Source: a virus
Length of the DNA: 64,000 nucleotides
Direction: 5' to 3' (one strand)
IMG/VR virus record: IMGVR_UViG_3300021378_000020
Span: 3,460 to 67,459 of that record
The first letter of the stretch is position 1; every line of letters starts with the position of its first letter. Under the pieces are notes generated by a model. That model saw only the letters and a program-made list of their open reading frames with translations, had not been told where the DNA came from and searched no databases. Below, piece after piece: positions 2,140-56,591 of the stretch. The translations under genes and the position numbers were made by a program.

Positions 2140-3860
2140 GTACTTTCTTTCATTCGACTGAAGTTTTTATCTTTAACGAATGTCAACTTGCGTTCGAAGT
2201 GAGCATCCTCAAGTTCAGTCTTGTGAGATATCACAAAAACATTAGTGTCCTCTTTCAAAGTGTCGATAATCTTCATAAGGTTATCTACACCTTCACCGTC
2301 CAACGAAGAGTCGAACGTTTCATCTAGTATCAACAGATTAGTCGATACTGAATTCTTCATCTTAGCAATCTGTCGCCAAGTAAATAGTAGGGACAAGTCA
2401 ATACGCTGTTTCTCACCTTCAGAGAAAGAGTCGTAAGAAAACGTGTCTCGATATCGTGACCGGATGGTTTCGCTGAAACTATCATCCAGTTCAAAGTGTA
2501 CAAAGAAGTCTAGAATCTGCAAGTACTTATTAGTCAACTCATTGATGACCGGAATGTACTGTCGGATAATCTTGGTCTTGATTCCGGTGTCGCGCAGTAA
2601 CTCACTGGCTATACGGTTATAAGACGCCTTCTCGTTAAGAATGTACTTTTCATCAGTCCGCTCATGAAGTTCCGAGTCTAGAGAGTTAAGGTCAGTGTTG
2701 GCCTGTCCCATGTCACCCGAACTATCCGCCATGTTGTCCAAGTCGGTACGAAGTTTATCGATAGACCTTTGTAAACGAGAGATGGTTTGCTGATTGTTGT
2801 TTAACGTGTTCTGATCTGCAAGACAAGCGTTCATCTGTGTTTCCAAAGAAACTATCTCATCTCCATAGGTTTTCTGCTGAACTTCCGCCTCATCCATTGT
2901 AATCTTCAGTTCTTTAGCCTTGGCGGTTGCTGCATCCTTTTTAGCATTACGCAACTCTTCTGCAATGTCTTGTTCGCAAGTAGGACACACTTCATTCTGG
3001 TCAAAGAACTTTGCCTCCTTGACTACAGACTTAACCTGTGTCTTAAACTGCGCATAGTATTGGTCTAGTTTCTGTTTATTAGAACGAACACTAGTTAGAC
3101 TGTCAGTGATAGTGGGTAATAGAGTGTTAACCGTCTCAGATAAAGCGCTGTTCGCAGCATTTAGTTCTTCGATTTCATCTCGAATATCTGATATCTCACC
3201 CTCTTTATCTTTACGGTGTTGGGTGTTGATTGCGGTCAAGTCACGGATATACTTCTTCTGTGCATTAATCTTAGTCTTGACCACTTCAATAGAATGGGTG
3301 TTGTTCTCAAGCTCGCCTTTAAGGAGAGAGGTCTTCTCCTTGAGTAACATATTCATCTTGGAGAAGATGTTAATATCAAGGAGGTCTTCTATCACGTCAC
3401 GTCGAGAGGTTGAGTTGAGTTGCATGAACGGGACAAAAGACGACGAACCTAGAACAACAATCTGGTGGAAACTTTTATGAGACATCTGAAAGACATTCTT
3501 CTCAAGAATATCTTGGTATTCACGTGCATGTGAGCTCTGGTTAATCATTGTACCATCTTTCCAGATTTCAAACTTGGCGGGTTTGATTCCCCGCACAACG
3601 CGATATTGGACAGAGTTAACACTAAAAGTAACCTCAGTCACACAATCTTTATTATTGATAGTATTAATCAATTGATTCTTGGTGATCTTTCGGTGAGCTT
3701 TACCAAACAATGCGAACGATAATGCGTCCAACATCGTAGACTTACCAGCACCGTTCTCACCAACAATCAAGTTAGTGGAACTGTCTAGGAAATCTATTTC
3801 GTTAAAATAATTTCCAGTTGAAAGGAAATTACGCCATTTTAAGGTCTGGAATTTGATCAT
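2136..3860 (-). CDS. gp46: recombination endonuclease ATPase subunit, Rad50/SbcC-like (T4 gp46)
   Basis: Walker A GENGAGKS, zinc hook CPTC, signature FSEGEK, Walker B LILDE. Confidence 0.97.
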   Translation of the reverse strand: MIKFQTLKWRNFLSTGNYFNEIDFLDSSTNLIVGENGAGKSTMLDALSFALFGKAHRKITKNQLINTINNKDCVTEVTFSVNSVQYRVVRGIKPAKFEIWKDGTMINQSSHAREYQDILEKNVFQMSHKSFHQIVVLGSSSFVPFMQLNSTSRRDVIEDLLDINIFSKMNMLLKEKTSLLKGELENNTHSIEVVKTKINAQKKYIRDLTAINTQHRKDKEGEISDIRDEIEELNAANSALSETVNTLLPTITDSLTSVRSNKQKLDQYYAQFKTQVKSVVKEAKFFDQNEVCPTCEQDIAEELRNAKKDAATAKAKELKITMDEAEVQQKTYGDEIVSLETQMNACLADQNTLNNNQQTISRLQRSIDKLRTDLDNMADSSGDMGQANTDLNSLDSELHERTDEKYILNEKASYNRIASELLRDTGIKTKIIRQYIPVINELTNKYLQILDFFVHFELDDSFSETIRSRYRDTFSYDSFSEGEKQRIDLSLLFTWRQIAKMKNSVSTNLLILDETFDSSLDGEGVDNLMKIIDTLKEDTNVFVISHKTELEDAHFERKLTFVKDKNFSRMKEST

Positions 3861-39170: not shown

Positions 39171-39199
39171 ATTATACCACAGTAAGGGCGATTAGGCAA
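39171..39199 (-). promoter_or_regulatory. possible sigma70 promoter with extended -10
   Basis: TTGCCT-17 nt-TATAAT with TG at -15/-14. Confidence 0.4.
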
Positions 39200-42100
39200 C
39201 CCTTACGTATAAAGTATAAGTTTCTGGTGTATCTACTAGGTCACCACTAATGGTTTCACCAGCATAGTTACCAGCAAATGCCCTAGAGAAGTTTCCGGTG
39301 AAATCGGTATTGTAGTTACCACCAAATGTACGAGAGTAGTTACCTACGAAATCACCAGCGTAAGCAGACACACGGTCACGAGAATAAGTACCAGTGTATG
39401 TAGAGTTGCGTATTCTTGCGTAAGCTGATACACGAGCTCTAGAGTAATTACCTGAGAAGTCTCTTGAATAAGCACCAGCGTACTCACCAACAAATCCACG
39501 TGAGTAGTTACCTACGAAGTCGCCTACGAAGTCACGGGTATATGTTCCAGCGAATTCTCCCGCGAATGTACGCGAGTAGTTGCCTACAAAGTCGCCAGCA
39601 AAGTTAGTTACACGGTCACGTGAATATGTGGATACACGATTGTTTACGTATGAAGACACACGAGTTTGAACATATGCAGAGTAACGAGCACGGGTAGACT
39701 CACGAGTATATACACTAGTAAAGTCACCAGTGTATGTCCCACCAAATCCACGAACATAATTACCAACGTAGTCACCAGCATATCCGCGAGCATAGTTGCC
39801 TACGAAGTTACCAGCAAAGTCCGTAATACGGTCTCTTGTGAAAACACCAGAGTAATCTGTAATGCGGGTACGAGCATAGGCTGAAACACGGTTGCGAACA
39901 GAATCGCGAGTTGAATTGCGAGTAAAGTCACCAACATAGTTAGTGATACGAGTACGAGCATATGCAGAGTACCGGACGCGAGTAGAAACTATGGTTGAAG
40001 TTCTTGTGTAGTTGCCGACAAAGTTGCCTGCAAAGTCTGTTACACGGTCACGAGTAAAGTCACCAACATAGTTAGTGATACGAGTACGAGCATATGCAGA
40101 GTAACGAGTTCTTGTAGAAGTACGAGTTGAAGTTCTTGTGTAGTTGCCGACAAAGTCACCAGCGTATGAACCAACGCGTGTATAGTTACCAGTATTAGTA
40201 AAGGTCTGAACACGATTACGAGTGTACGCCGTCGCATAGTTACCAGTATAAAGAACTTGACGTGTGTAGTAACCAGTATTGGTTGAAGTTCTAGTTGAAG
40301 TTCTTGCGTAGTTACCCTCATAAGAGCCAGTGCGAGTACGTGCGTAGTTACCAACATAGTACAGTGTTGCAGCACGAGCGCGAGAGTAGTCCCCGACATA
40401 TGAGAATGCACGGTTACGAGCATAGTTACCAGTATAGGATGCCGCACGAGTACGTGAGTAGTCACCCACGAAGTTCCCGGCATAGTTTGTTACACGAGTA
40501 CGACCATAGTTACCAGTATATGTTGCGGCACGGGTTCGACCGTAGTTACCAGTATATGTTACATTTCTATTATAGGAGGCTGTTCGAGAATACGTAGTGG
40601 ATCGACCGTAGTTGCCTACGAAGTCACCAGTATAGGAAGTCCCTGCACCTATTCTAGTTCTGGTGTAGTATTGGTAGTTTGCATTACCCGACGCTGCAAC
40701 ACTGTGGTAAGAGAAATATGAAGCAGATGCTTGAGCTGGCCCCTTAGTATATCTTGTGCTACCGTATGGGTTGCCTACATCAACATAGTCGAATGGGGCC
40801 GACGCAGTATTAGAATAGAATTGGGAAAATCGAACAGCACCGGCCCAGCTGATGGTAAGAGTTACACCACCGGTGTAACCATAGTCATACTTCCATGAAG
40901 CGTAGCTACCGTTAGTGCCGGTGTATTGAAAGTCTTGACCATAACCAGCATAATTACCAACAAAGGAAGCAGTACCAGAACTGACACGAGTCGATGTTCT
41001 GCTGTAATTTACTGTACGAGCATAACCCGTACTGCGAGTATAGGCTACAGCTGCGACTCGGTTACGGGAGTAATCGCCAACATAGGATGCAGCTCGGTTA
41101 CGTGAGTAGTCACACACGAAGTTCCCGGCATAGTTTGTTACACGAGTACGACCATAGTTGCCTACATATGAGGCAGCGCGAGCTCGCGTATAGGTACCAC
41201 CGTAAGTACCAGTACGAGTACGACCATAGTTACCAGTATATGTAACGCCTTGTGCGCGAGTACGAGAGTAGTTACCTACGTAACTGAATGCACGAGCACG
41301 TGCGTAGTTACCTACAAAGTCACCAGCATAGTACAAAACACGAGTATATGCCACAGTGCGAGCATAGTTTGCAGAGTAGTTACGAGCATAGTTGCCTGCA
41401 AAGTCACCAACGTAGTACAATGTACGAGTATAGTTTAAGGTGCGAGTGGAAGTTCGGGTTGAGGTTCTTGCATAATCACCGACGAAATCTCCGGCATAGT
41501 TGCCTACATATCCACGTGCGTAGTTACCTACAAAGTCACCAGTAAAAGTAGTTGCATAGTTACCAACAAAGTTACCAGCATAGTTGGTTATACGGGTTCT
41601 TGCATACTCACCAACATAGTTACCAGTATAATCTCCGGCAAATCCGCGTGAGTAGTTACCTACGAAGTCACCAGTAAAGGTAGTTGCATAGTTACCAACA
41701 AAGTCGCCCGCGTAATTACCTGTGTAAGTTCTTGTATAGTTACCAGCGAAGTCACCAGTAAACGCTCGAGAATAGTTTCCGATGAAGTTACCAGCAAAGT
41801 TTGTTACACGGTCACGTGCATATGCAGAGTAACGAGTGCGAGTTGATGTGCGGGCATAGGCTGAGTAACGAGTTCTAGCAGAAGCCCGAGTAGAAACACG
41901 AGCGTAGTTACCTACGAAGTTGCCCGCGAATCCACGTGCGTAGTTACCCACGAAAGATCTTGCATAGTTACCCACGAAAGTTCTTGCATAGTTACCAGCG
42001 AAGTTACCGGCAAATTCTGTAATGTTATTACGCGTATAAGCAGATATACGTTCACGACTATAAACACCAGTGTATGACGCGGTAAATCCGGTTAGTCTAG

Positions 42101-43154
42101 TACGTGAGTAAGTAGAGTTACGAGTACGCGAATATGTTCCGGAAAAAGAAGAAGGTCGAGTTCTTGTGTACTCACCAGCGAAGTTACGAGAGTAATTACC
42201 AGCGAAGTCGCGAGAATAAACTCCAGCATAATTGCCAACAAATGTACGAGAGAAGTCTGTAACACGATTAGTGGTATATGAAGAAACTCGATCACGAGTG
42301 TATGCTGATACTCTAGTACGTGCATACGCAGAAGCGCGAGTACGAGTATAGTCTACGGTAACAATAGAAGGTTGAGTGTTTGAGGCAGAACCACGTGCGG
42401 CCCAAGTACCAACGGAGGTTGGTGCGCCCTGTGCAGACGAACGTAACTGATAAGAACCAATTTCGCCTGCTGTTGCTCTGAGGGATTTTGCACGTTGACC
42501 AAGAGTATATTTGATCTCCGCGTCTGACATTTCTTTCAGACCATTGAATGATGAAGTTCCATCATAGTCGGTCGCTACCGGACGAACAGTTGTAACACCA
42601 GCTGGTGGTGTAGACAGAGCAGTTCTTTTCCATATATGATAAGTTGTTGTTGTACCGTCACCAAGAGTATTAGAAAAAACATTATCAATATGTTTTGTCC
42701 AATCACTGCCCGGAGAGGTGGTAGAAAGTTCGAATGCACCTTGAAGACCTAATGTCTCCATATTTTTTAGTGCACGATTTGTTAAGTTGTCCAAGTCTGC
42801 GTCTACCATTTCGTAGAAGCCTGGATTTGGTTCAACTTCGTAATAACCTACAGGACGGGCGAAATTCGGATCAGTTTCACTTGCAGAACCACCAACCTGT
42901 TTCAAGGTAGTGGTCACTGTAGTGCCTGTGATGTTTGACAACGGGTGAGTACCCGTTGGTTCATTGTAGTACGTATCTACAAAAGAACCAATGTTTACAC
43001 CATCAGTTAAACTGAGGTCTCCGATATCACCAGCAGAGGCCTCTGCTAGTGCTTCACCCACCTTTACAGCGAGATACATCTCTTCTGAAGGTGTAATTTC
43101 CTGTAGGTCACCATTAGCATTCTTAATTTTTAGTGGTATACTAGATGCTGACAC
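39192..43154 (-). CDS. 1320-aa virion fibre-like protein with two complementary tetrapeptide-repeat arms (giant antiparallel beta-hairpin) and a central tip domain
   Basis: aa ~269-738 and ~830-1300 are built of YxRx/RxSx/FxGx/STRT units; non-repetitive aa ~739-829; late promoter upstream. Confidence 0.8.
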   Translation of the reverse strand: MSASSIPLKIKNANGDLQEITPSEEMYLAVKVGEALAEASAGDIGDLSLTDGVNIGSFVDTYYNEPTGTHPLSNITGTTVTTTLKQVGGSASETDPNFARPVGYYEVEPNPGFYEMVDADLDNLTNRALKNMETLGLQGAFELSTTSPGSDWTKHIDNVFSNTLGDGTTTTYHIWKRTALSTPPAGVTTVRPVATDYDGTSSFNGLKEMSDAEIKYTLGQRAKSLRATAGEIGSYQLRSSAQGAPTSVGTWAARGSASNTQPSIVTVDYTRTRASAYARTRVSAYTRDRVSSYTTNRVTDFSRTFVGNYAGVYSRDFAGNYSRNFAGEYTRTRPSSFSGTYSRTRNSTYSRTRLTGFTASYTGVYSRERISAYTRNNITEFAGNFAGNYARTFVGNYARSFVGNYARGFAGNFVGNYARVSTRASARTRYSAYARTSTRTRYSAYARDRVTNFAGNFIGNYSRAFTGDFAGNYTRTYTGNYAGDFVGNYATTFTGDFVGNYSRGFAGDYTGNYVGEYARTRITNYAGNFVGNYATTFTGDFVGNYARGYVGNYAGDFVGDYARTSTRTSTRTLNYTRTLYYVGDFAGNYARNYSANYARTVAYTRVLYYAGDFVGNYARARAFSYVGNYSRTRAQGVTYTGNYGRTRTGTYGGTYTRARAASYVGNYGRTRVTNYAGNFVCDYSRNRAASYVGDYSRNRVAAVAYTRSTGYARTVNYSRTSTRVSSGTASFVGNYAGYGQDFQYTGTNGSYASWKYDYGYTGGVTLTISWAGAVRFSQFYSNTASAPFDYVDVGNPYGSTRYTKGPAQASASYFSYHSVAASGNANYQYYTRTRIGAGTSYTGDFVGNYGRSTTYSRTASYNRNVTYTGNYGRTRAATYTGNYGRTRVTNYAGNFVGDYSRTRAASYTGNYARNRAFSYVGDYSRARAATLYYVGNYARTRTGSYEGNYARTSTRTSTNTGYYTRQVLYTGNYATAYTRNRVQTFTNTGNYTRVGSYAGDFVGNYTRTSTRTSTRTRYSAYARTRITNYVGDFTRDRVTDFAGNFVGNYTRTSTIVSTRVRYSAYARTRITNYVGDFTRNSTRDSVRNRVSAYARTRITDYSGVFTRDRITDFAGNFVGNYARGYAGDYVGNYVRGFGGTYTGDFTSVYTRESTRARYSAYVQTRVSSYVNNRVSTYSRDRVTNFAGDFVGNYSRTFAGEFAGTYTRDFVGDFVGNYSRGFVGEYAGAYSRDFSGNYSRARVSAYARIRNSTYTGTYSRDRVSAYAGDFVGNYSRTFGGNYNTDFTGNFSRAFAGNYAGETISGDLVDTPETYTLYVRVA
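39919..40103. repeat. 53-nt identical repeat with 132-nt period in the C-terminal arm
   Basis: CGAGTAAAGTCACCAACATAGTTAGTGATACGAGTACGAGCATATGCAGAGTA at 39919 and 40051. Confidence 0.9.
40451..41159. repeat. 61-nt direct repeat shared by the two arms (40451-40511 / 41099-41159)
   Basis: Single mismatch (40466 C / 41114 A; Gly vs Cys codon). Confidence 0.9.
41521..41704. repeat. ~52-nt repeat with 132-nt period in the N-terminal arm
   Basis: TAGTTACCTAC[A/G]AAGTCACCAGTAAA[A/G]GTAGTTGCATAGTTACCAACAAAGT at 41521 and 41653. Confidence 0.85.
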
Positions 43155-45794: not shown

Positions 45795-47063
45795 TTAACT
45801 CAATCTTCCTAGTTTAACCCTTAGATTAGATTCTTCGAATATGTTAATAACATCATTTGTTATCTCCATACGAGAACCTGTCAGACCTGTACCTATATCT
45901 AGTTGTCCCGTAACTGTCGCATTTGACAGCTTAACTTCGTCACCGACTACAGTGAATGGTTGAATCTCGGTATTAGATGCATTTACAATACGGAAGGTAT
46001 CTGCGGTCAACGCGAACTCTGCGGTTGCACCGTCATTACCAAACTTGAGACCAGCAATGTGTGGGTTGGACTCTGTACCAGCAACTAAGTCAAGATTCCA
46101 TGTTGCGGTTGTTCCACCCAATCCGTCTATTTGGGTTTGTAGTGATTGACTTGCGGCCGCGATATCATCACCAACCCTTGTCTCTAGTTCTACGAGGTCT
46201 CCGCTTATAGAAGTAAGCCCATCAGAGTTGTAATCGACACGTGAAGACAGAGTTGCCCGAGCGTTTGATTCTGCTGTAATCAACGCGCCTGTTGCACTGT
46301 CTAGTGCAGAAAGAGATGTATTTAAATCCGTAATCTTCTGAGCTTCGAGACTGAGTTTATCACTATCGGCATCCAACCGAATAGTCATATCGTCTAATGC
46401 ACCACCGATTGCTTCGGTTATCTGTTCTGGTGTAAGAGTGATACCATCAGAAATAAGTTGAGTAAGGTCTAAATCTAATTGTGTTACGTCAGAAACTACT
46501 GCGGATAAACCACTGGTGTTTGCGGTCACAGATGCAGATAGAGTGTTTATTGCATTCACATTTACATCAATTCTGTCTTGGGTTGCAGAATCTAGAAGAA
46601 GTAAACTTGCATTTACGCTGTCGATGTTAGCTGCGAATACACTGACGCTACTGTCTGTTGCATCGATTCGAGAGATTAGAGCAGTGTTTGCATTTGCAAT
46701 AGCGCTGGCAAGAAGGTCAGAGTCGATACCATCAAGAGTGATACCATCAAGTTGTGCTTGAGTAGCCTGTTGTTGGGCAGCGAGGACACTGATACCACTA
46801 TCATTCTGAGTGATGCTTGCTTGTAATGTCAACAGTGAGGCTGCATTCGCTGCAATACCTGCTTCAACATCAGTTAGGTCAACATCAGTGGTTAGAGTGA
46901 ATTGACTTAAAAATTCTTGGTTAACCACATTGGTGATATTCGCAGAATCGAGACCACCGCCAAAAGCTCCCGTTTCTACCAACTCGAAGTTTTCATTAAT
47001 CTTATCGAATGCCGCATTGATATTATCTGCGAGATTGACTAGTTGTATGCTACCTGTGCTCAT
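45795..47063 (-). CDS. coiled-coil fibre with a J-like (DUF1983-type) C-terminus
   Basis: N-terminal FDKINENF baseplate anchor; C-terminal HIAGLKFG..EFALTADTFRIV..PFTVVG..RMEITND..LRVKLGRL. Confidence 0.7.
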   Translation of the reverse strand: MSTGSIQLVNLADNINAAFDKINENFELVETGAFGGGLDSANITNVVNQEFLSQFTLTTDVDLTDVEAGIAANAASLLTLQASITQNDSGISVLAAQQQATQAQLDGITLDGIDSDLLASAIANANTALISRIDATDSSVSVFAANIDSVNASLLLLDSATQDRIDVNVNAINTLSASVTANTSGLSAVVSDVTQLDLDLTQLISDGITLTPEQITEAIGGALDDMTIRLDADSDKLSLEAQKITDLNTSLSALDSATGALITAESNARATLSSRVDYNSDGLTSISGDLVELETRVGDDIAAASQSLQTQIDGLGGTTATWNLDLVAGTESNPHIAGLKFGNDGATAEFALTADTFRIVNASNTEIQPFTVVGDEVKLSNATVTGQLDIGTGLTGSRMEITNDVINIFEESNLRVKLGRLS

Positions 47064-47290
47064 TTCTTATCCTCTAATAAACGAAAAAGCAATTCTTTTA
47101 TTTGTGTCATATCCTCTTTCAATCCCTTGACTTCTATGGATAAAGAATCGATATTTTCCTGTTGTTCTTGATGTATCTTACTTCGTTTCCTAGCATTTTC
47201 GATTGCGGTTTTATTGGTATTTAGGATAACACCCGTTCGCATATCCCTTACCAAATCGTTGTGTCCCTCAACTCTCTGGTGACTATTCAT
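47060..47290 (-). CDS. conserved small T4-like phage protein
   Basis: VEGHNDLVRD..GVILN..IKELL; usual neighbour of DUF4815-type genes. Confidence 0.75.
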   Translation of the reverse strand: MNSHQRVEGHNDLVRDMRTGVILNTNKTAIENARKRSKIHQEQQENIDSLSIEVKGLKEDMTQIKELLFRLLEDKK

Positions 47291-50200
47291 TATGTTACCA
47301 ACGCAATAACACGTAGGTCTCTAGTTACCGGAGACTTGGATGAATTGCTTGAGTGCATCACAATCTTTACTTGGAATGCGGTGAACTGGTCGGTATTAAC
47401 AGTATATTCATAATCACGGAAGGTCGATGGATTGTCATCCGAAGGCAGTTCCTTGTCTATAGTAGCCTGTACCCATTCTGTAATAAAGTTACCCTCATCA
47501 TCAGTTGCAACCAAGGCGTCTTCATCCGCTGTGACTCTTACATAAACCTCGAAGTCAGCAGGAGACGGACGGTTTGCTGCAAAGATTATCTTTAGGCCCA
47601 CAGAGGATTCGTTAATTACTATTGGTACAGTTATATGTTGCGCTGCATCAGTACTATCAATAACATTCTCTAGGGCAAGAACAGATACCCTTTGGAGGTC
47701 GATGACCGGAGAAACCTTCGTGTCTTCTGTAGACAAGTTTAGGTTGAACTTCATTGTTTCTGAACCACCCGCATTATCCGAAGATGCGACAACACTAGGT
47801 AATGTATTAGTGTTATAGTCGTTTAAAAACACGGTCTTAGATGTTGTTATTCCATAACCAAACTGATTGGTAGACCTAGAATCTCCATAGGAAGAAACCG
47901 AAGGACTAAACAGTTCAGTCGTAATAGTAGTTTTCTTCGGTGTGACGGTTTGTATTTGTGGAACAAACTCATCATAATACACTTGTTGAGATGCAGTTAC
48001 ATCATTACCACCACCCACCGCAGAAGATGTTGCAGGAGTTGCAACGGTAATGTCATATCCATTCCATGTTGGATTAGACACCAAGAAGGTGCCTTCGAAA
48101 TCTGTTGAAGGTACTCCACCAATTGCATTAGGCACATCAGATATAGATACTGTATCGTTATAACTAAATCCATGACCTTCGTGATAAACACGAACAGATG
48201 ATGAACCTATAGTTGTTTCTAAGGGGTCTAGCCCCAATGTAACTTTAGGTAACGATGCATTGTCAAGTACTAATGTACCCGAAGTATCAAAATCAGCACG
48301 GTCTAATTCGAACATTAAGTCTTTAGTCTGGTCTGGTGTCCATGTGAAACCATTTTGAGATAGGAACAAAGAACCTAGAGTAGGCTGTCTTGTTACTCTA
48401 TCTTCGCGTGAACCAATTATGTTCTCGTAGGTTTCAGCAATATAAGAGTTATATCCCACTGACTCAGCAAGTAAGATTATCGCATATTCTTCCCCACTTG
48501 TCAAGTAGATTGGTTCATCAAATTCAACGATTGTTGCTCGTCCGGTTAAGTAGGTTATACCATTTTCTTCCACATCAATAACCGGTGTTACTGTAATATC
48601 AGCAGGGTCAACAAACTTGACTGCGCCAGGTACGATACGTGTAGTAGGTATACCGTTCTCTACTGAACGAATCTGAACCTGTAGAGGAATGTTGTCGTCC
48701 TTGGTCTCCATGAAGATTCGCGCTTTAGTTATGAACAGACCATTAGGGTTCTCTATTTGGTCAACGAAGAATGTCTGAGCGAGAGGGTCTTGACGACCAG
48801 CACGGACATTAAGCACTCGTGTTGTACGGATAGTTCTCTGCACACTTTCGACGGTACCCGTTGAGGTGTAGTTCGCACGAGTTGAAGCCGTAGCTTCATT
48901 GTCGCTATTAACGCTCACATCAAGAAGTTTTAATTCATGAGTTCCAGTTCTAAAGTTAATTGTTGGTGTATTGGGTAAGAAGAAACTACCGACCAATTCA
49001 CCATTAGCATCGGTTTGTAATGTGGTAGGGCCACCTAGGTCTGATGGATACTCAGTTGCATTCGCATACTGACTACCGAACTCTGTAGGGTCGTCCGAGA
49101 ATATAGATGAAGATGATTCTTGTCTTACCCATGAACTCACCTCTTTATTACCAAAGTATGCGAACATCTTAGTGTTGGGACGTAGACCCTTTGCAGTAAA
49201 GTGGATTCTACGAGAACGCATGAATGGAACAATCTCGACATCTGCAACCTGTTCACCAATAAAGTCCTGAATGCTACGAGTGGTTTCTCTGAAGGAAACG
49301 TCTCTTGGTATTGTAGTGAACAATCCATTATTTGTCAAGGTATTATTAGAATTTCTTCCGGTACGCAATGCTTGACGCTGCCATAGGTCTGCATCGAAAT
49401 TTTCGAATCGACGTACAGTGGTCTGCATGATAGACGGTAGAGTTCTAGTCTCAACCCACTCATCCGATGATGGAGAAAGCTCCATATGTCCGGTTTGAGT
49501 AAGCACCGCAAATGGATTCACGTTCATTGTATCTGTCGCAAGCAACTGTGATACTAGAGTAACGTCTGTATAAGGTAGAGTTACTAGGTCGCCATGTTTC
49601 TCAACAGCATCAACGTTGTCCGTACTATAAGAAAGACGGACTGAGTTCTCGCGGAAGGATGGTTTCAACAATCCCCGTGGATCGATAGATGCGCGGTAGT
49701 TTAAGTTGTCGATATCTGAGAAGATGAAAGAACTAAAGTTGTCTGCAATGAAACCAGCCTTGGTACGTGCATTACCGTTGATATCTACTACAGTCAATGC
49801 ATTGGTGTTCGACTCTAACAAACTCAGAGTGGTCAATTCGAATAAGTCTGTAACACGTTGTTCCAGTTTACCGATGTCTTTCATCGTGAAACGTTTGTTT
49901 GGAATAAACGTACTAGTAAGGTCAGCGGTACCGAATGTGTATGGGTTCAAACGGAACTTATACAACGCCATTGAACCTGTAGGAATCTCTGGTTCACGTG
50001 GGATTACATTGGACTCGCCTTGAATCAATTGTAGTTCACCGAATCCGATGTTACCACGACTGTCTACCGCATTAGCAACAAGGATATCGATACGCGGTAG
50101 ATAGTATTGGATAGTGTTGATTGTAATTGCAGAAGCATTCTGTGGTAGTTCGGCTCTAACGTCGAACTCACCGGTGTAAGTGAATGCTCGGTCTGGACGG

Positions 50201-52266
50201 AAGTCCAACACATCACGCATAGAGATCACTTGACCTGTTGCTGCATTATAATCAGGAATAGTTTCGTAAGTGTCATCAACATATGAACTTGCGGCGAAGA
50301 AAACACCATCATCTTGGTGGTCATAGTAGGTGTAAGTGACCTGAATCTCAGAATCGCCACCACTTGGTATAAAATATCCAGACTTAATGTATACCACTAC
50401 ACGGTCATAGAAGTTATCACGTTGACCGCCATCTAAGTAGAATTGGTAAGTGATATCTTCCGCATCTGCCCAATCAGTAGCAACATCATCTCTAAACTTA
50501 ACCGATTGCAGAGCGATACCATCAACATTTTGTGTAAATACTGGACGGGCCTGCCAATCTTGAGTAGGAATGGTCTGGGTTTGAACTCCAGTTGCAATTT
50601 GTTTGGTGCGTGGTTGCACATTACTAAGTTCCACGTAGTATGCAATGTCGTATTCTTGTCCGGTAGTTAGACCACTGTATGTGCCTGACATATCTGGGGT
50701 AATCGACAGGATAGCACTTCCTGTATCACATATCACCCACTGACTTTGTTCTACACCAGAAAGACTAATCTCCCCGCTAACATCTGCTGTCTGTCTAGTA
50801 TATCGTTGGATAGTGTAGTTAGCAGTAATAGGGTCTATAGAGGGTGTTGTTCTAGGTAGCGGGAACAATAAATTGTTGTTCGATGCTTCATGGATTATGC
50901 TGTCTACTAGTTTTATTTGTGGAGCTCCACCGCCTGGGATGTTATCTTCCATAACATCGGTTTCAGAAAAACTGTGGAAACCTCCATTTCCAAAAATAGC
51001 GCCCATGCGAATATTAAAGATATATACTCGAACACCAACAGCATCTCGTTGAACACCACGAACATTACAGTAACCAATGACAGAACCAGTAGAGTCTTTT
51101 AGTGTTTGGTAACCAAAGACATCGAAACTACCGAACCCTTCAGTTAGGGCTTCGTCAATATAAACGTAGTTACCATATGCGGCAGGTACTGGTTCATTTG
51201 TTTTCGTAATAAGGTCTCTTGACTTCGGCACATTGATATCTGTTGTACCTATCTCTAGTCGATATCCATCTACGTATGCAATACCTTCGGTAACATCTAG
51301 GTTAAGGTTATTAGCATCTTTCTCTTCAAAAATCGCCTTGAACTCTTCTACTACGTAGTTACCAGACTCTTCTTTTGTACGTTGTGCAAGAAGGTCATTG
51401 ATTCGGTTGTATGAGTCGAAGGTAGTTACTTCGCGAGTAATGATACCATCAACAACACGTGCAACAAATACAAAGTTCTCTTCTGCTATTACTTGGTCGC
51501 GTGTAGTGGGTACTAATTTAATCTGGTATCGATGCGCGCCAGGAGCTGTTGCATCTGGAACTTCTCCTTGATTGTCGTAGAGACTATTGTCTTCACCTTC
51601 GGTGATAATCGCCTCTTCAATACGGAATCCAATATCTGCGGTTGGTAGTGCACTGTATTTGTTAATGAACGAACTACCACCTTCCATGTAGACGAAGTGG
51701 TTCTGTACAAAAAAGTCGCCTGCAGCAAAGTATGCTTTAGTTCCCTTACCGACAGCAGGAATGGGGTCTGCGCTGTCATCAATAACAACAATAGAAGAAT
51801 TTGAAGTACCGTCTAGTGCTACTAGAGTGTCGAGAGAGGATACCCGAGGAGCGACAGTATTGTCAGAGGCCTCAGAAGTGTCTGTGTACTGTACGTATAG
51901 TGTAGCAGGGTCGCCATTAACGGACTCGACAACTTCGATTACCTTACATTCGATACCTTTAACTACTAAAGTTCCGTTAGTTAGGGTTTTACCCAGTAGG
52001 TCTGGGCCCAGGATACTAATAGGGTCTAGTCGAATATACTCTAATGTATTGTCTACAGTCGCGCCGCCTGGATTTACCAGAGCACCTTCTTTGAAAATGT
52101 TACGACCGAATCGTGCAATCTCTTCTTGGATGATTGTTTGTGATTCGATTAACTCACGTGCTTGTAGTGCACGTCCAGAGTTGAACAATACACGATGATA
52201 ACCTTTTTCAGCATCATAAAAATCGCGATATGTTTCTTTAAAAATTTTATTTGTAAAATCTACCAT
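47290..52266 (-). CDS. large baseplate-associated virion protein (DUF4815 / VrlC-like)
   Basis: YHRVLFNSGRALQARELIESQ, APGAHRY, RTKEESGNY, NKRFTMKDIG, DPLAQTF, SLFLSQNG. Confidence 0.85.
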   Translation of the reverse strand: MVDFTNKIFKETYRDFYDAEKGYHRVLFNSGRALQARELIESQTIIQEEIARFGRNIFKEGALVNPGGATVDNTLEYIRLDPISILGPDLLGKTLTNGTLVVKGIECKVIEVVESVNGDPATLYVQYTDTSEASDNTVAPRVSSLDTLVALDGTSNSSIVVIDDSADPIPAVGKGTKAYFAAGDFFVQNHFVYMEGGSSFINKYSALPTADIGFRIEEAIITEGEDNSLYDNQGEVPDATAPGAHRYQIKLVPTTRDQVIAEENFVFVARVVDGIITREVTTFDSYNRINDLLAQRTKEESGNYVVEEFKAIFEEKDANNLNLDVTEGIAYVDGYRLEIGTTDINVPKSRDLITKTNEPVPAAYGNYVYIDEALTEGFGSFDVFGYQTLKDSTGSVIGYCNVRGVQRDAVGVRVYIFNIRMGAIFGNGGFHSFSETDVMEDNIPGGGAPQIKLVDSIIHEASNNNLLFPLPRTTPSIDPITANYTIQRYTRQTADVSGEISLSGVEQSQWVICDTGSAILSITPDMSGTYSGLTTGQEYDIAYYVELSNVQPRTKQIATGVQTQTIPTQDWQARPVFTQNVDGIALQSVKFRDDVATDWADAEDITYQFYLDGGQRDNFYDRVVVYIKSGYFIPSGGDSEIQVTYTYYDHQDDGVFFAASSYVDDTYETIPDYNAATGQVISMRDVLDFRPDRAFTYTGEFDVRAELPQNASAITINTIQYYLPRIDILVANAVDSRGNIGFGELQLIQGESNVIPREPEIPTGSMALYKFRLNPYTFGTADLTSTFIPNKRFTMKDIGKLEQRVTDLFELTTLSLLESNTNALTVVDINGNARTKAGFIADNFSSFIFSDIDNLNYRASIDPRGLLKPSFRENSVRLSYSTDNVDAVEKHGDLVTLPYTDVTLVSQLLATDTMNVNPFAVLTQTGHMELSPSSDEWVETRTLPSIMQTTVRRFENFDADLWQRQALRTGRNSNNTLTNNGLFTTIPRDVSFRETTRSIQDFIGEQVADVEIVPFMRSRRIHFTAKGLRPNTKMFAYFGNKEVSSWVRQESSSSIFSDDPTEFGSQYANATEYPSDLGGPTTLQTDANGELVGSFFLPNTPTINFRTGTHELKLLDVSVNSDNEATASTRANYTSTGTVESVQRTIRTTRVLNVRAGRQDPLAQTFFVDQIENPNGLFITKARIFMETKDDNIPLQVQIRSVENGIPTTRIVPGAVKFVDPADITVTPVIDVEENGITYLTGRATIVEFDEPIYLTSGEEYAIILLAESVGYNSYIAETYENIIGSREDRVTRQPTLGSLFLSQNGFTWTPDQTKDLMFELDRADFDTSGTLVLDNASLPKVTLGLDPLETTIGSSSVRVYHEGHGFSYNDTVSISDVPNAIGGVPSTDFEGTFLVSNPTWNGYDITVATPATSSAVGGGNDVTASQQVYYDEFVPQIQTVTPKKTTITTELFSPSVSSYGDSRSTNQFGYGITTSKTVFLNDYNTNTLPSVVASSDNAGGSETMKFNLNLSTEDTKVSPVIDLQRVSVLALENVIDSTDAAQHITVPIVINESSVGLKIIFAANRPSPADFEVYVRVTADEDALVATDDEGNFITEWVQATIDKELPSDDNPSTFRDYEYTVNTDQFTAFQVKIVMHSSNSSKSPVTRDLRVIALVT

Positions 52267-54294: not shown

Positions 54295-56571
54295 TTATAA
54301 CTTACCTAAACGAACTCTTACTTTACTGTTTTCGATAATCTGTATGTTATCATCTTCAAATTTTATTTGTGAAGTTCCAGAAACGGCATCCTTAATTCCT
54401 TCTAGAGATAATATACCACCCGAAGTAATCTCGCCGAAAGGAACGTCGGTAGTACTATTGATACTTCCACCTTGATACTGATAAACGCGTCCTGTTCCCA
54501 CAGACCAATATATGTCGTTCTGTAGTACCTCGTTAGTACCACGGTATTGTCGGACTAAATCTGACTTAGACCCTGCACCATAATCTGGGTTTATTGTAGC
54601 ATCCGTGTCAAATACAATTGCATTACCAGCAGAACCTGCTGAACCAGTAGGCCCCTGTGGCCCTTGTGCACCCTGCGCGCCAACATTACCCTGTAGACCA
54701 GTAGCACCCTGTAGACCAGTAGGGCCCTGAGCACCTTGAGCACCAACATTACCTTGTGGCCCCTGAAGACCAGTATCTCCTTTCGGGCCTGCATCTCCTT
54801 GTGGGCCTGCTATACCTTGTGGCCCTTGCGCACCTGTTTCACCTTTAGCACCTGTGTCACCTTTTGCTCCGGCGGCTCCAGTTGGCCCTTGGATACCAGT
54901 ATCCCCTTTAGGCCCGGCATCTCCCTGAGGCCCAGCGATACCTTGAGCACCTTGTAGACCAGTAGGGCCCTGATCACCAACGTCTCCTTTAGCACCAACA
55001 GAACCTTGTGGCCCCTGTGCACCTTGTGGCCCGGTGTCTCCGGTTAAACCTCTTGGGCCGACCAAACCTTGTGGGCCTGCTATACCTTGTGGGCCAGTGT
55101 CTCCTTGAAGACCTATCTCACCTTGAGCTCCTTGCAGTCCCTGTGCACCTATGTTACCTTGAAGTCCCTGTTCACCTTGGTCTCCCTTTTCTCCAACGTC
55201 TCCTTGAAGTCCTTGAGGGCCTTGAGCTCCTTGCTCACCTTGTAATCCAGTTGGGCCAATAGGGCCCTGAAGACCCTGTGGGCCTTGAGCTCCTTGATCA
55301 CCAATCGGGCCTTGAGCACCAACTGTTAGAAACGCATCTAAGAAACTACTTGACGTAATGTTTGAGGCAACAGCAGCAATCGCATATATCTGCCAGTTGA
55401 TGTTAGTAACACCGCCTGGCACTGCGGTTGGGTTTGGATTCCACAAGTAAGTACCACCATTAGTTTGGTAGATACCACCAGTCAAAGAGGTTCCCGTAGG
55501 CTGTAGGTCGTTCGGGTCATAGTCTCTAGGGGCATTAGTATAGTATGGGAAGTTTGTTTCACCAGTTGCACCGGCAGCACCCTGCTGTCCGGAACTACCT
55601 TGTAAACCAGTTGGGCCTGGTAGACCAGTCTCCCCTTGTGGGCCTTGAGCACCAGCGTCACCCTGTAAACCTTGTGGGCCCACAGGGCCTTGTGCGCCTT
55701 GTAAACCAGTTGGGCCTACGTCACCTTGAGCTCCTTGCTCACCTTGTGCACCAATAGCACCTTGAAGACCTTGCTCTCCCTTCTCTCCAATATCACCTTG
55801 TGCACCAGTCTCACCTTGACTACCTTGGACACCGATTTCACCCTGTGGGCCAGGAAGTCCCTGCGGCCCAGTTTCTCCCTGATTACCTTGAAGACCCTGA
55901 AGACCTATAGGGCCGATTGGGCCAGTATCACCTTGTTCACCTTGGTCACCTTTGATACCTTGAAGACCAGTTGACCCTACCTCACCTTGAGCTCCTTGCT
56001 CGCCTTGGTTACCTTGGACACCAATTTCTCCTTGAAGACCTATAGGCCCTTGAGCTCCTTGCTCGCCTTGGTCGCCTTTGATACCTTGGTCTCCTTGGGG
56101 CCCAGGAAGTCCTTGTGGGCCTTGAGCACCGACTTCACCTGCTAATCCTTGTGGGCCTTGTTCGCCAGTATTACCCTGAGCACCCTGTTCACCAACAGCG
56201 CCAGGAGCACCAGCAGGGCCTTGTTCACCAGCAGGGCCTGCGGCACCCATCATAGCGATACGTGTTGGTGGTTCCCACGGTGCTGGAATAGAGTCTCCGG
56301 TCGCTGGGTTACCGTTTACAAATCGTCTGCATTGCCAAAGGACTGGGAAAGAAGTGCTTAGGTCTCCTTGGAAAGTAGTCCAAGAGATTCCATCAACCGC
56401 ACCGGCCGGAGAAGGTAGACCATAAGTCCAACTATCACTAGGAAGTTGGGTCGATAGGAAATCCCCAGCATCATCGATACTGGAGATTGTTTTAGTATAA
56501 ATGTACTCAAAGCCAGACGCATCATATAGATCTGTAAAGGTTATAGATTGTGAGGCTCTTATAGTTGCCAT
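54295..56571 (-). CDS. collagen-like tail fibre with two triple-helix segments
   Basis: Uninterrupted Gly-X-Y at 56247-55555 and 55320-54619; C-terminal VRVRLGKL; ATG at 56571 with AGGA RBS. Confidence 0.85.
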   Translation of the reverse strand: MATIRASQSITFTDLYDASGFEYIYTKTISSIDDAGDFLSTQLPSDSWTYGLPSPAGAVDGISWTTFQGDLSTSFPVLWQCRRFVNGNPATGDSIPAPWEPPTRIAMMGAAGPAGEQGPAGAPGAVGEQGAQGNTGEQGPQGLAGEVGAQGPQGLPGPQGDQGIKGDQGEQGAQGPIGLQGEIGVQGNQGEQGAQGEVGSTGLQGIKGDQGEQGDTGPIGPIGLQGLQGNQGETGPQGLPGPQGEIGVQGSQGETGAQGDIGEKGEQGLQGAIGAQGEQGAQGDVGPTGLQGAQGPVGPQGLQGDAGAQGPQGETGLPGPTGLQGSSGQQGAAGATGETNFPYYTNAPRDYDPNDLQPTGTSLTGGIYQTNGGTYLWNPNPTAVPGGVTNINWQIYAIAAVASNITSSSFLDAFLTVGAQGPIGDQGAQGPQGLQGPIGPTGLQGEQGAQGPQGLQGDVGEKGDQGEQGLQGNIGAQGLQGAQGEIGLQGDTGPQGIAGPQGLVGPRGLTGDTGPQGAQGPQGSVGAKGDVGDQGPTGLQGAQGIAGPQGDAGPKGDTGIQGPTGAAGAKGDTGAKGETGAQGPQGIAGPQGDAGPKGDTGLQGPQGNVGAQGAQGPTGLQGATGLQGNVGAQGAQGPQGPTGSAGSAGNAIVFDTDATINPDYGAGSKSDLVRQYRGTNEVLQNDIYWSVGTGRVYQYQGGSINSTTDVPFGEITSGGILSLEGIKDAVSGTSQIKFEDDNIQIIENSKVRVRLGKL

Positions 56572-56591
56572 TTTACTTCCTACCAATTAAT

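Follow-up and report, generated by a model that had tools for sequence, protein, structure and literature searches.

A tail-fibre gene with two patterned arms

The window analysed here is a 64,000-nucleotide stretch of viral DNA (IMG/VR record IMGVR_UViG_3300021378_000020, positions 3,460 to 67,459 of that record). One of its genes, on the minus strand, encodes a 1320-amino-acid (aa) tail-fibre protein of a T4-like cyanophage, whose only isolate relative is classified in Kyanoviridae. The protein contains a base domain, an outgoing arm (N arm), a tip, a return arm (C arm) and a short C-terminal segment (Table 1). An earlier reading of this DNA, made from the letters and translations without database searches (the sequence-only reading), had placed the open reading frame (ORF) correctly, and had proposed that the two arms are complementary to each other in antiparallel order.

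Both arms follow the same simple pattern. Specifically, Arg, Tyr, Phe, Gly, Ser and Thr occupy every second position of both arms with zero phase slips, while the intervening positions hold small residues only, mainly Thr, Ala, Asn, Val, Ser and Asp. His, Lys, Met and Trp are absent from the arms. The patterned face carries 127 Arg versus 46 Asp or Glu. The tip is located between the arms, is centred on the mirror axis (residue 784) and is rich in Tyr, Ser, Gly and Ala.

Table 1. Coordinates of the fibre gene, its parts and the neighbouring genes in the window
Feature	Position in window	Strand	Remarks
Whole fibre gene (P0001)	39192..43154	(-)	GTG start, 1320 aa; C48C1 homolog begins likewise
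N-terminal base domain, aa 1-268	42351..43154	(-)	Conserved family-wide, non-repetitive
Outgoing (N) arm, aa 269-738	40941..42350	(-)	Patterned residues on odd positions
Non-repetitive tip, aa 739-829	40668..40940	(-)	Candidate receptor-binding domain, from its position only
Return (C) arm, aa 830-1299	39258..40667	(-)	Complementary to N arm at i+j=1568
C-terminal linker and conserved terminal strand, aa 1300-1320	39195..39257	(-)	Ends TYTLYVRVA
N-arm internal duplications, aa 449-566	41457..41810	(-)	Offsets 44 and 72 aa; mirror images fall on C-arm duplications
C-arm internal duplications, aa 990-1128	39771..40187	(-)	Same offsets, 44 and 72 aa; DNA repeat families D2/D4/D8
Self-complementary module, N-arm copy, aa 645-704	41043..41222	(-)	Direct repeat of aa 861-920
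Self-complementary module, C-arm copy, aa 861-920	40395..40574	(-)	DNA family D12
Tail-fibre assembly chaperone, 159 aa	43281..43760	(-)	Directly upstream; PF16778, E 1.4e-11, 44.5 bits vs cutoff 26.6
Three ORFs downstream of the fibre gene, 153, 250 and 235 aa	37194-39083	(-)	81-89% identical to C48C1 counterparts
422-aa protein	45795-47063	(-)	Phage_Tail_Tip PF09327, E 4.8e-8
1658-aa protein	47290-52266	(-)	DUF4815, E 6.6e-58
763-aa collagen-like tail fibre	54295-56586	(-)	Many PHROGs, best E 3.5e-142; second, unrelated fibre type

The arms are complementary in a single antiparallel register

Residue i was paired with residue c-i, ungapped, for each value of c, and 101 registers were scanned on the alternate-residue track. 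The scan has a sharp optimum at c=1568, where only 3 of 235 pairs join residues of the same class and mutual information (MI) reaches 1.04. Other same-phase registers have 13-44 same-class pairs and MI of ~0.35-0.55; the near rivals are neighbours only, namely c=1566 (MI 1.02) and c=1564 (MI 0.81).

The sequence-only reading had suggested scoring residue i against ~1568-i in comparison with shuffled unit orders and shifted registers, and none of these reaches the value at c=1568. Specifically, the C arm was shuffled in blocks of 2, 4, 8, 12 and 24 aa, 5000 times each, and 0 of the 25,000 shuffles attain the observed like-pair count or MI. The C arm was also rotated by multiples of 4 (117 rotations); MI comes near only at the equivalent of c=1566 (1.01), and the fewest like pairs are 20. 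When the arms are compared in parallel at equal numbers of pairs, the best of 235 offsets has MI of 0.49, versus 1.04 for the antiparallel comparison. An all-residue scan does give a parallel maximum of MI 1.04 at offset 732, which is biased upward because it covers fewer pairs (309 versus 479); the control at equal numbers settles the point. It is thus confirmed that aa 269-738 and aa 830-1299 are complementary in a single ungapped antiparallel register, i+j=1568, along their whole length and with few exceptions, as had been proposed.

The composition of the rungs defines the pairing rule. At c=1568, there are no Arg:Arg, Gly:Gly or Arg:Ser/Thr pairs, and only 2 aromatic:aromatic pairs. Five combinations account for 204 of the 235 rungs: Arg:aromatic (84), Arg:Gly (40), aromatic:Ser/Thr (36), aromatic:Gly (28) and Gly:Ser/Thr (16). 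The rule is a degenerate one: aromatic residues and Gly face Arg and Ser/Thr, and aromatic residues also face Gly. All unit pairings listed in the sequence-only reading (R:G, S/T:F, S:G, R:F/Y, Y:R and Y:G) are present in the pair table. Its description of the code as base-pair-like is overstated: like almost never faces like, and the code is not one-to-one. The arms are 12% identical at c=1568, i.e., complementary rather than identical.

The Arg residues also show a one-sided diagonal, Arg:Arg pairs being absent at c and at c-2 and numbering 28 at c+2. A twisted antiparallel ladder, which has one close diagonal, would produce the same pattern, and the pattern is equally expected from a second neighbouring strand shifted by two residues.

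The period-4 phase of the units flips 11 times in the N arm and 10 times in the C arm, always past residue 561, and most flips are matched within ~3 rungs. The eight matched two-residue insertions described earlier are thus roughly right.

The ORF contains 14 direct DNA repeat families and 0 inverted repeats. Because the ORF has no DNA inverted repeat, the mirror relation exists at the protein level only. A DNA palindrome or RNA hairpin is ruled out on the same count.

The internal duplications of the two arms are mirrored as well. Only five strong internal repeat relations are found in the arms, and they are mirror-matched. The N arm has duplications with offsets of 44 aa (465-522/509-566) and 72 aa (449-494/521-566), and the C arm has duplications with the same offsets (990-1044/1034-1088 and 1002-1056/1074-1128, respectively); through c=1568, each N-arm pair maps onto a C-arm pair. 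The module at 645-704 is up to 83% identical to its direct repeat, 861-920, in a 36-aa window. Because this direct repeat is also its mirror partner (864-923), the module is self-complementary.

Longer periodicities were also observed. Self-identity peaks at lags of 28, 44 and 72 aa are common to both arms, and indel (insertion or deletion) sizes in relatives cluster at 14, 28 and 56 aa. These shared lags and size clusters may reflect a structural super-period.

The register is conserved in relatives

A phmmer search with the N-terminal domain retrieved 351 metagenomic cluster representatives at E<=1e-3, including 118 at E<=1e-30, and the domain also matches 189 IMG/VR stretches. The sole isolate with the family among 50,697 phage records is C48C1. 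When 7.7 kb of the window were compared with phage records by megablast, no match was obtained. Family lengths range from 381 to 4046 aa, and a C-terminal TYTLYVR-type motif is present in 119 of 162 family proteins (relaxed pattern). The short homologs predicted by the sequence-only reading exist as natural forms of 404-436 aa. The fibre protein has only two irrelevant sub-threshold matches in Pfam and none in PHROGs. No PDB chain was matched at E<=1 by sequence or family profile, so no sequence link to T4 gp37 was detected. In the ESM Atlas, the nearest clusters are unnamed viral proteins with scores of 0.83-0.87, which are leads only.

Two conserved residues, an invariant Trp in the N domain and the terminal-motif Leu, serve as anchors for the register in relatives, the prediction being that Trp+18 pairs with Leu-15. 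Relatives were scored over 48 offsets with the pairing matrix of the window protein, the window protein itself being left out. For the first 40 arm residues, the predicted offset outscores the other 47 in 38 of 112 relatives; the corresponding figures are 37 of 112 for the first 60 and 33 of 103 for the first 100, and the next most frequent offset is best in 8-9 proteins only. Among further distinct proteins from IMG/VR loci, the predicted offset is best in 41/58 and 43/56. The proteins are inter-related, so these counts do not represent independent events.

In tracebacks on 13 relatives, the first long segment coincides exactly with the predicted register in six (P0006, P0079, P0122, P0109, P0151 and P0033); P0079, for instance, has 157 ungapped rungs, and P0006 has stretches of 52 and 107. 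In another six relatives, the closest long segment lies within 1-9 residues of that register. The turn of P0033 is short, with ~7 residues between the paired segments 302-319 and 344-327. Covariation analysis on metagenomic homologs, another check that had been proposed, gives a peak on the predicted diagonal among 33 tested (118 proteins; corrected MI 0.044, next 0.028). In 68 of 119 proteins, self-alignment with the window matrix scores above every one of the 8 block shuffles, compared with ~13 expected by chance. The register is tied to the two anchors in proteins of 404 to 2101 aa.

Some relatives (P0004-P0010 and P0013-P0017) carry other repeat dialects on the same base, which the window matrix fits poorly. 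One dialect has Tyr at every fourth residue, with outgoing arms rich in Lys and Arg and return arms rich in Asp, Glu and Gly; another consists of FAGVR/FSGPR-type units. These dialects may follow a different pairing rule, e.g., salt bridges.

The giant homolog of phage C48C1

The homolog of phage C48C1 (Kyanoviridae; OQ984149.1) is 3347 aa long, has the same two ends and is 42% identical to the window fibre. A log-odds pairing matrix learnt on the window protein was applied to it by local alignment with cheap gap extension. The C48C1 outgoing arm (260-1296) pairs colinearly with the return arm from base to tip, with 987 pairs, of which the inner 418 are ungapped. The alignment has five large gaps, which fall on five non-repetitive inserts of the return arm. 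The antiparallel score is 727, versus 273 for the parallel control; block shuffles of 4, 12 and 48 (10 each) have means of 232, 375 and 472, respectively, and a maximum of 504. Within the ungapped stretch, 3 of 209 rungs are like-with-like. The Arg:Arg counts at c, c-2 and c+2 are 0, 1 and 25, the same one-sided pattern as in the window protein.

The five inserts are globular and confined to the return arm (L002:612-10655, aa 1788-3260). In addition, a stretch of ~75 aa occurs twice in tandem near aa 2008-2160 of the C48C1 fibre, which is either a real duplication or an assembly artefact.

Mirrored indels between close relatives

In the clearest cases, close relatives differ by indels of equal or similar size at mirrored positions. 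L003 carries +20 aa relative to L004 at two places, 259 residues after the N-arm start and 257 residues before the C-arm end. Counted in this way, L018 differs from L022 by -24 at 76 and -24 at 87, and by +12 at 222 and +12 at 225; P0007 and P0009 differ by 36 aa at 84 and 38 aa at 88; and L039 and L053 differ by 14 at 7/11, 56 at 114/107, 28 at 129/129 and 28 at 156/154.

The pairing of indels of >=8 aa was counted in 14 hand-picked pairs out of 27 close pairs, some events being common to several pairs. The 63 indels include 34 that are mirror-paired and 7 that are central. Random positions give 6.5+-3.1 paired indels, and 0 of 2000 runs reach 34. When all 27 close pairs are taken without selection, net changes in length on the outer N side and the outer C side are correlated (r=0.80).

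Predicted structure of the base

The base was modelled on a short relative, P0084 (436 aa), by AlphaFold2 (AF2) with a 112-sequence family alignment. The mean predicted local distance difference test score (pLDDT) is 79, with block means >90 for residues 1-270, except 86 for residues 71-80. The final strand of the domain, 260-283, runs into the N arm; its block means are 89 at 271-280 and 56 at 281-290, and its last residues are less certain. The terminal strand, 409-434, has block means of 87-98 from residue 411, and the block 401-410 has a mean of 48. The ends of the two strands add up to 694 and 692, against a value of 694 predicted by the anchors. Strand pairing at the base is also suggested by structural alignments of the P0084 domain, which extend to residue 436. 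The model thus lends indirect support to the claim that the C-terminal ~20 aa return to the N-terminal base domain.

The best VIA-align hits of the N-terminal domain are beta-prism-like domains (MACPF C-terminal/MABP/perforin-2 P2) with Z of 7.2, 6.9, 6.3 and 5.6 (113-124 residues aligned, root-mean-square deviation 3.4-5.3), which lie within the stated noise ceiling of 7-8, i.e., at the level of common background. Foldseek gives no match in PDB or BFVD at E<=1e-3, the arms lacking a confident model. A three-copy prediction of aa 664-904 scores 0.00 with an uncertain fold, and has no bearing on a trimer either way.

Gene neighbourhood

The genes around the fibre gene encode baseplate wedge subunits, a wedge-fibre connector, a collagen-like fibre and other fibre proteins. 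The chaperone encoded directly upstream also matches PHROG 4912, tail fiber assembly. The fibre gene is thus located in a baseplate and fibre module beside a fibre assembly chaperone, the location generally expected of a tail fibre. Because the PF09327 and DUF4815 proteins sit beside the 1320-aa fibre, the module contains several different fibre or tip proteins.

The gene order of C48C1 is identical (chaperone, fibre, three small genes), with a chaperone of 32% identity at the same position. The fibre (42%) and the chaperone (32%) are far more diverged than the three downstream genes (81-89%), as would be typical of a host-range determinant. The 250-aa downstream protein has a sub-threshold match to glycosyltransferase family 2 (E 0.0011, 19.3 bits vs cutoff 23.3), and no family is matched by the 153- and 235-aa proteins. 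A single-sequence phmmer search found a chaperone-like ORF in 3/75 related loci only and is uninformative.

Proposed fold and alternatives

The sequence data suggest, with a probability of roughly 0.7, that the protein is a tail fibre with an intrachain antiparallel beta-hairpin shaft and a receptor-binding tip at the turn. The mirrored duplications, the mirrored indels and the transfer of the pairing matrix to homologs support the view that the arms act as physical antiparallel partners. The arms are very probably physical neighbours, and their pairing probably occurs within one chain; a trimeric six-stranded needle is a tentative extension. The beta conformation, the fold-back in one chain, the oligomeric state, the length and the buried face are features that we infer from these data.

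In the proposed fold, aa 1-268 and the last ~20 residues would together form the virion-proximal base. From the base, an extended strand of 470 residues with a two-residue period would lead outwards. A globular tip of ~90 aa would form at the turn and bind the host, and the chain would then return for 470 residues beside the outgoing strand, antiparallel and in register. On one face, Arg, Tyr and Phe would lie opposite small or complementary Gly, Ser and Thr, or Arg opposite an aromatic residue. The opposite face would consist of small residues only (Thr, Ala, Asn, Val, Ser and Asp).

Like most phage fibres, the protein is probably trimeric. The small-residue face could line the narrow core of a six-stranded tube, provided that three hairpins close up to form one. 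Such a tube would leave the 127 Arg of each chain exposed, which differs from the packing of Arg and aromatic residues proposed in the sequence-only reading. By arithmetic only, 470 rung-residues correspond to a shaft of ~155 nm if straight, or ~125 nm at a strand tilt of 37 degrees.

Several observations weigh against the hairpin fold. In the structure predictions, the arms of P0084 (287-406) have pLDDT <50, the pairing of its terminal strand at the base is read from strand extents only, and the hairpin segment aa 640-928 of the window protein (289 aa, no alignment) gave an unusable model with pLDDT of 30.3. The 127 Arg of the patterned face, versus 46 Asp or Glu, are hard to bury, so the packing proposed in the sequence-only reading is doubtful. 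Many relatives depart from the predicted register: 74 of 112 peak at other offsets, 51 of 119 do not exceed their own shuffles with the window matrix, and P0084 traces off the expected register (686 and 662 versus 694). Global ungapped MI scans recover the expected register only in P0006 among 16 other family proteins (15 homologs and C48C1). A crude comparison of arm lengths with an aromatic-phase tip finder gives r of only 0.45, with 8/20 proteins within 12 aa.

The indels count partly on this side too. Homologs had been expected to change by equal lengths in both arms. The correlation and the mirror-paired events bear this out in part; 22 of the 63 indels have no mirror partner, and the length changes of the N and C sides agree within 8 aa in only 10 of the 27 close pairs. 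One-arm indels, named beforehand as evidence against pairing, do occur. Specifically, L028 and L037 (94% identical) are 820 and 703 aa long, the difference being one 117-118-aa insert in the L028 return arm with no outgoing-arm partner, and C48C1 has its five globular inserts. These one-arm inserts resemble extra domains set into the return strand more than strands of unequal length.

The best surviving alternative, though an improbable one, is that the fold-back ribbon is wound or supercoiled, alone or with partner chains, into a thicker and shorter body, in which case neither the 150-nm length nor the six-stranded needle would hold. The lags of 28, 44 and 72 aa shared by both arms and the clustering of indels in relatives at 14, 28 and 56 aa are consistent with such winding, as is the coupling that reaches c-2 and c-4. 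Moreover, a straight 1037-residue C48C1 arm would measure ~340 nm, a great length for a tail fibre. Nevertheless, a strict two-residue period over 470 residues is most simply explained by an extended strand.

Somewhat less likely still, the arms could pair between different, fully extended chains, the N arm of one against the C arm of another, giving a two-ended rod with the tips mid-rod and, at each end, a base built from the N domain of one chain and the C strand of its partner. All the sequence statistics need only a constant i+j, which is the same for pairing in cis and in trans, and AF2 modelled a monomer, so that it could place the C strand only in cis. Three points favour cis, none of them decisive: a phage fibre has to attach at one end and bind at the other, turns of ~7 residues in short members such as P0033 suit a hairpin, and the tip of T4 gp37 reportedly folds back within each chain.

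It is highly improbable that the mirror pattern is a by-product of repeat origin, through recombination or gene conversion between arms that make no physical contact: the 60-aa module common to both arms as a direct repeat indicates that inter-arm DNA exchange occurs, but exchange of direct repeats yields the same order and like-with-like, whereas the arms are in mirrored order, complementary with 12% identity and free of inverted DNA repeats, and independent lineages have equal-size mirrored indels on a register fixed to two conserved anchors in proteins from 404 to 2101 aa.

Comparison with known fibres

In the crystal structure of the T4 gp37 tip, each chain reportedly reaches the tip domain and comes back antiparallel, the binding head being placed at the turn. 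The hairpin proposed here would have the same out-and-back topology, which in this case is deduced from sequence through the register i+j=1568 and the mirrored evolution of the arms. The gp37 needle is described as thin, distal and ~150 by 25 Angstrom, and gp37 as requiring dedicated chaperones, in the passages of one source that were compared (PMC3004832); likewise, a chaperone gene adjoins the fibre gene here. According to the passages compared from a second source (PMC6957217), the gp37 needle is held by seven iron ions via His residues. Unlike the gp37 needle, the window fibre has no His-x-His iron motifs, with 0 His in its 941 arm residues, as the sequence-only reading had noted for HxH metal sites. 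It also differs in scale: the gp37 needle is ~15 nm, whereas the arms have 470 residues here and >1000 in C48C1, 30 to 70 times longer per arm. A rung-by-rung complementarity rule is not described for gp37 in the literature passages compared.

The T4 gp5 needle is a beta-rich trimeric fibre with short repeats and alternating inward and outward residues, in the passages compared from PMC3004832. The window fibre resembles this and other triple beta-helix or beta-spiral fibres (gp12, gp34 and the adenovirus shaft) in being beta-rich by prediction, with short repeats and alternating residues. Those fibres have three parallel intertwined chains, 8-15-residue repeats and no mirror between halves, whereas the antiparallel signal dominates here. 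Repeats that stack in parallel with no mirror between the chain halves, as in a parallel triple beta-helix or beta-solenoid, are not what the arms contain.

Aromatic:Gly and Arg-aromatic contacts, and diagonal contacts in twisted hairpins, are known from small beta-hairpins. The same rung types (aromatic:Gly, Arg:Tyr and Phe:Ser/Thr) and a one-sided diagonal are found here. In small beta-hairpins, however, these are tendencies over a few rungs, whereas here they are near-absolute over 235 rungs and are kept by compensatory evolution.

By analogy, the protein resembles an RNA or DNA stem-loop, with antiparallel complementary arms, a functional loop, compensatory changes and mirrored insertions. 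Unlike in a nucleic-acid stem, the pairing is degenerate, with four residue classes that have several partners each, and it has no templating function. The basis of the pairing here is presumably side-chain size together with cation-pi fit, on a backbone ladder held by hydrogen bonds.

A tail-fibre structure atlas (PMC12143355) has 16 classes and contains 0 occurrences of 'hairpin' or 'antiparallel'; the passages compared mention needle-shaped tips and no long hairpin shaft. A full-text search of one literature collection, by text and not by sequence, found no paper on this family or on a long complementary hairpin fibre. The fold-back topology itself is an already known kind of phage fibre. 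As far as these searches go, neither the scale nor the near-absolute pairing rule nor the stem-like compensatory evolution has been described. The chances are about even that the family represents a class of fibrous proteins not described before, in which one chain forms an antiparallel 'duplex' in register, with hundreds to about a thousand rungs, a simple complementarity rule, an evolution like that of a nucleic-acid stem and globular domains tolerated in the return strand.

Implications

If the arms pair, they would form the longest in-register beta-hairpin known to us and would provide a natural sequence rule for strand pairing that extends over hundreds of residues. For structural biology, this would be a fibrous fold without a solved relative. 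If the rule is true, the length and pairing of a beta-ribbon would be programmable from sequence, which may be of use in protein design. For phage biology, the proteins constitute a previously unannotated, predicted receptor-binding fibre family with one isolate only, and a natural series of proteins that share one base and differ in length (about 380 to 4046 aa). The proposed fold, if true, would explain how marine phage fibres can have arms from ~50 to >1000 residues on one conserved base.

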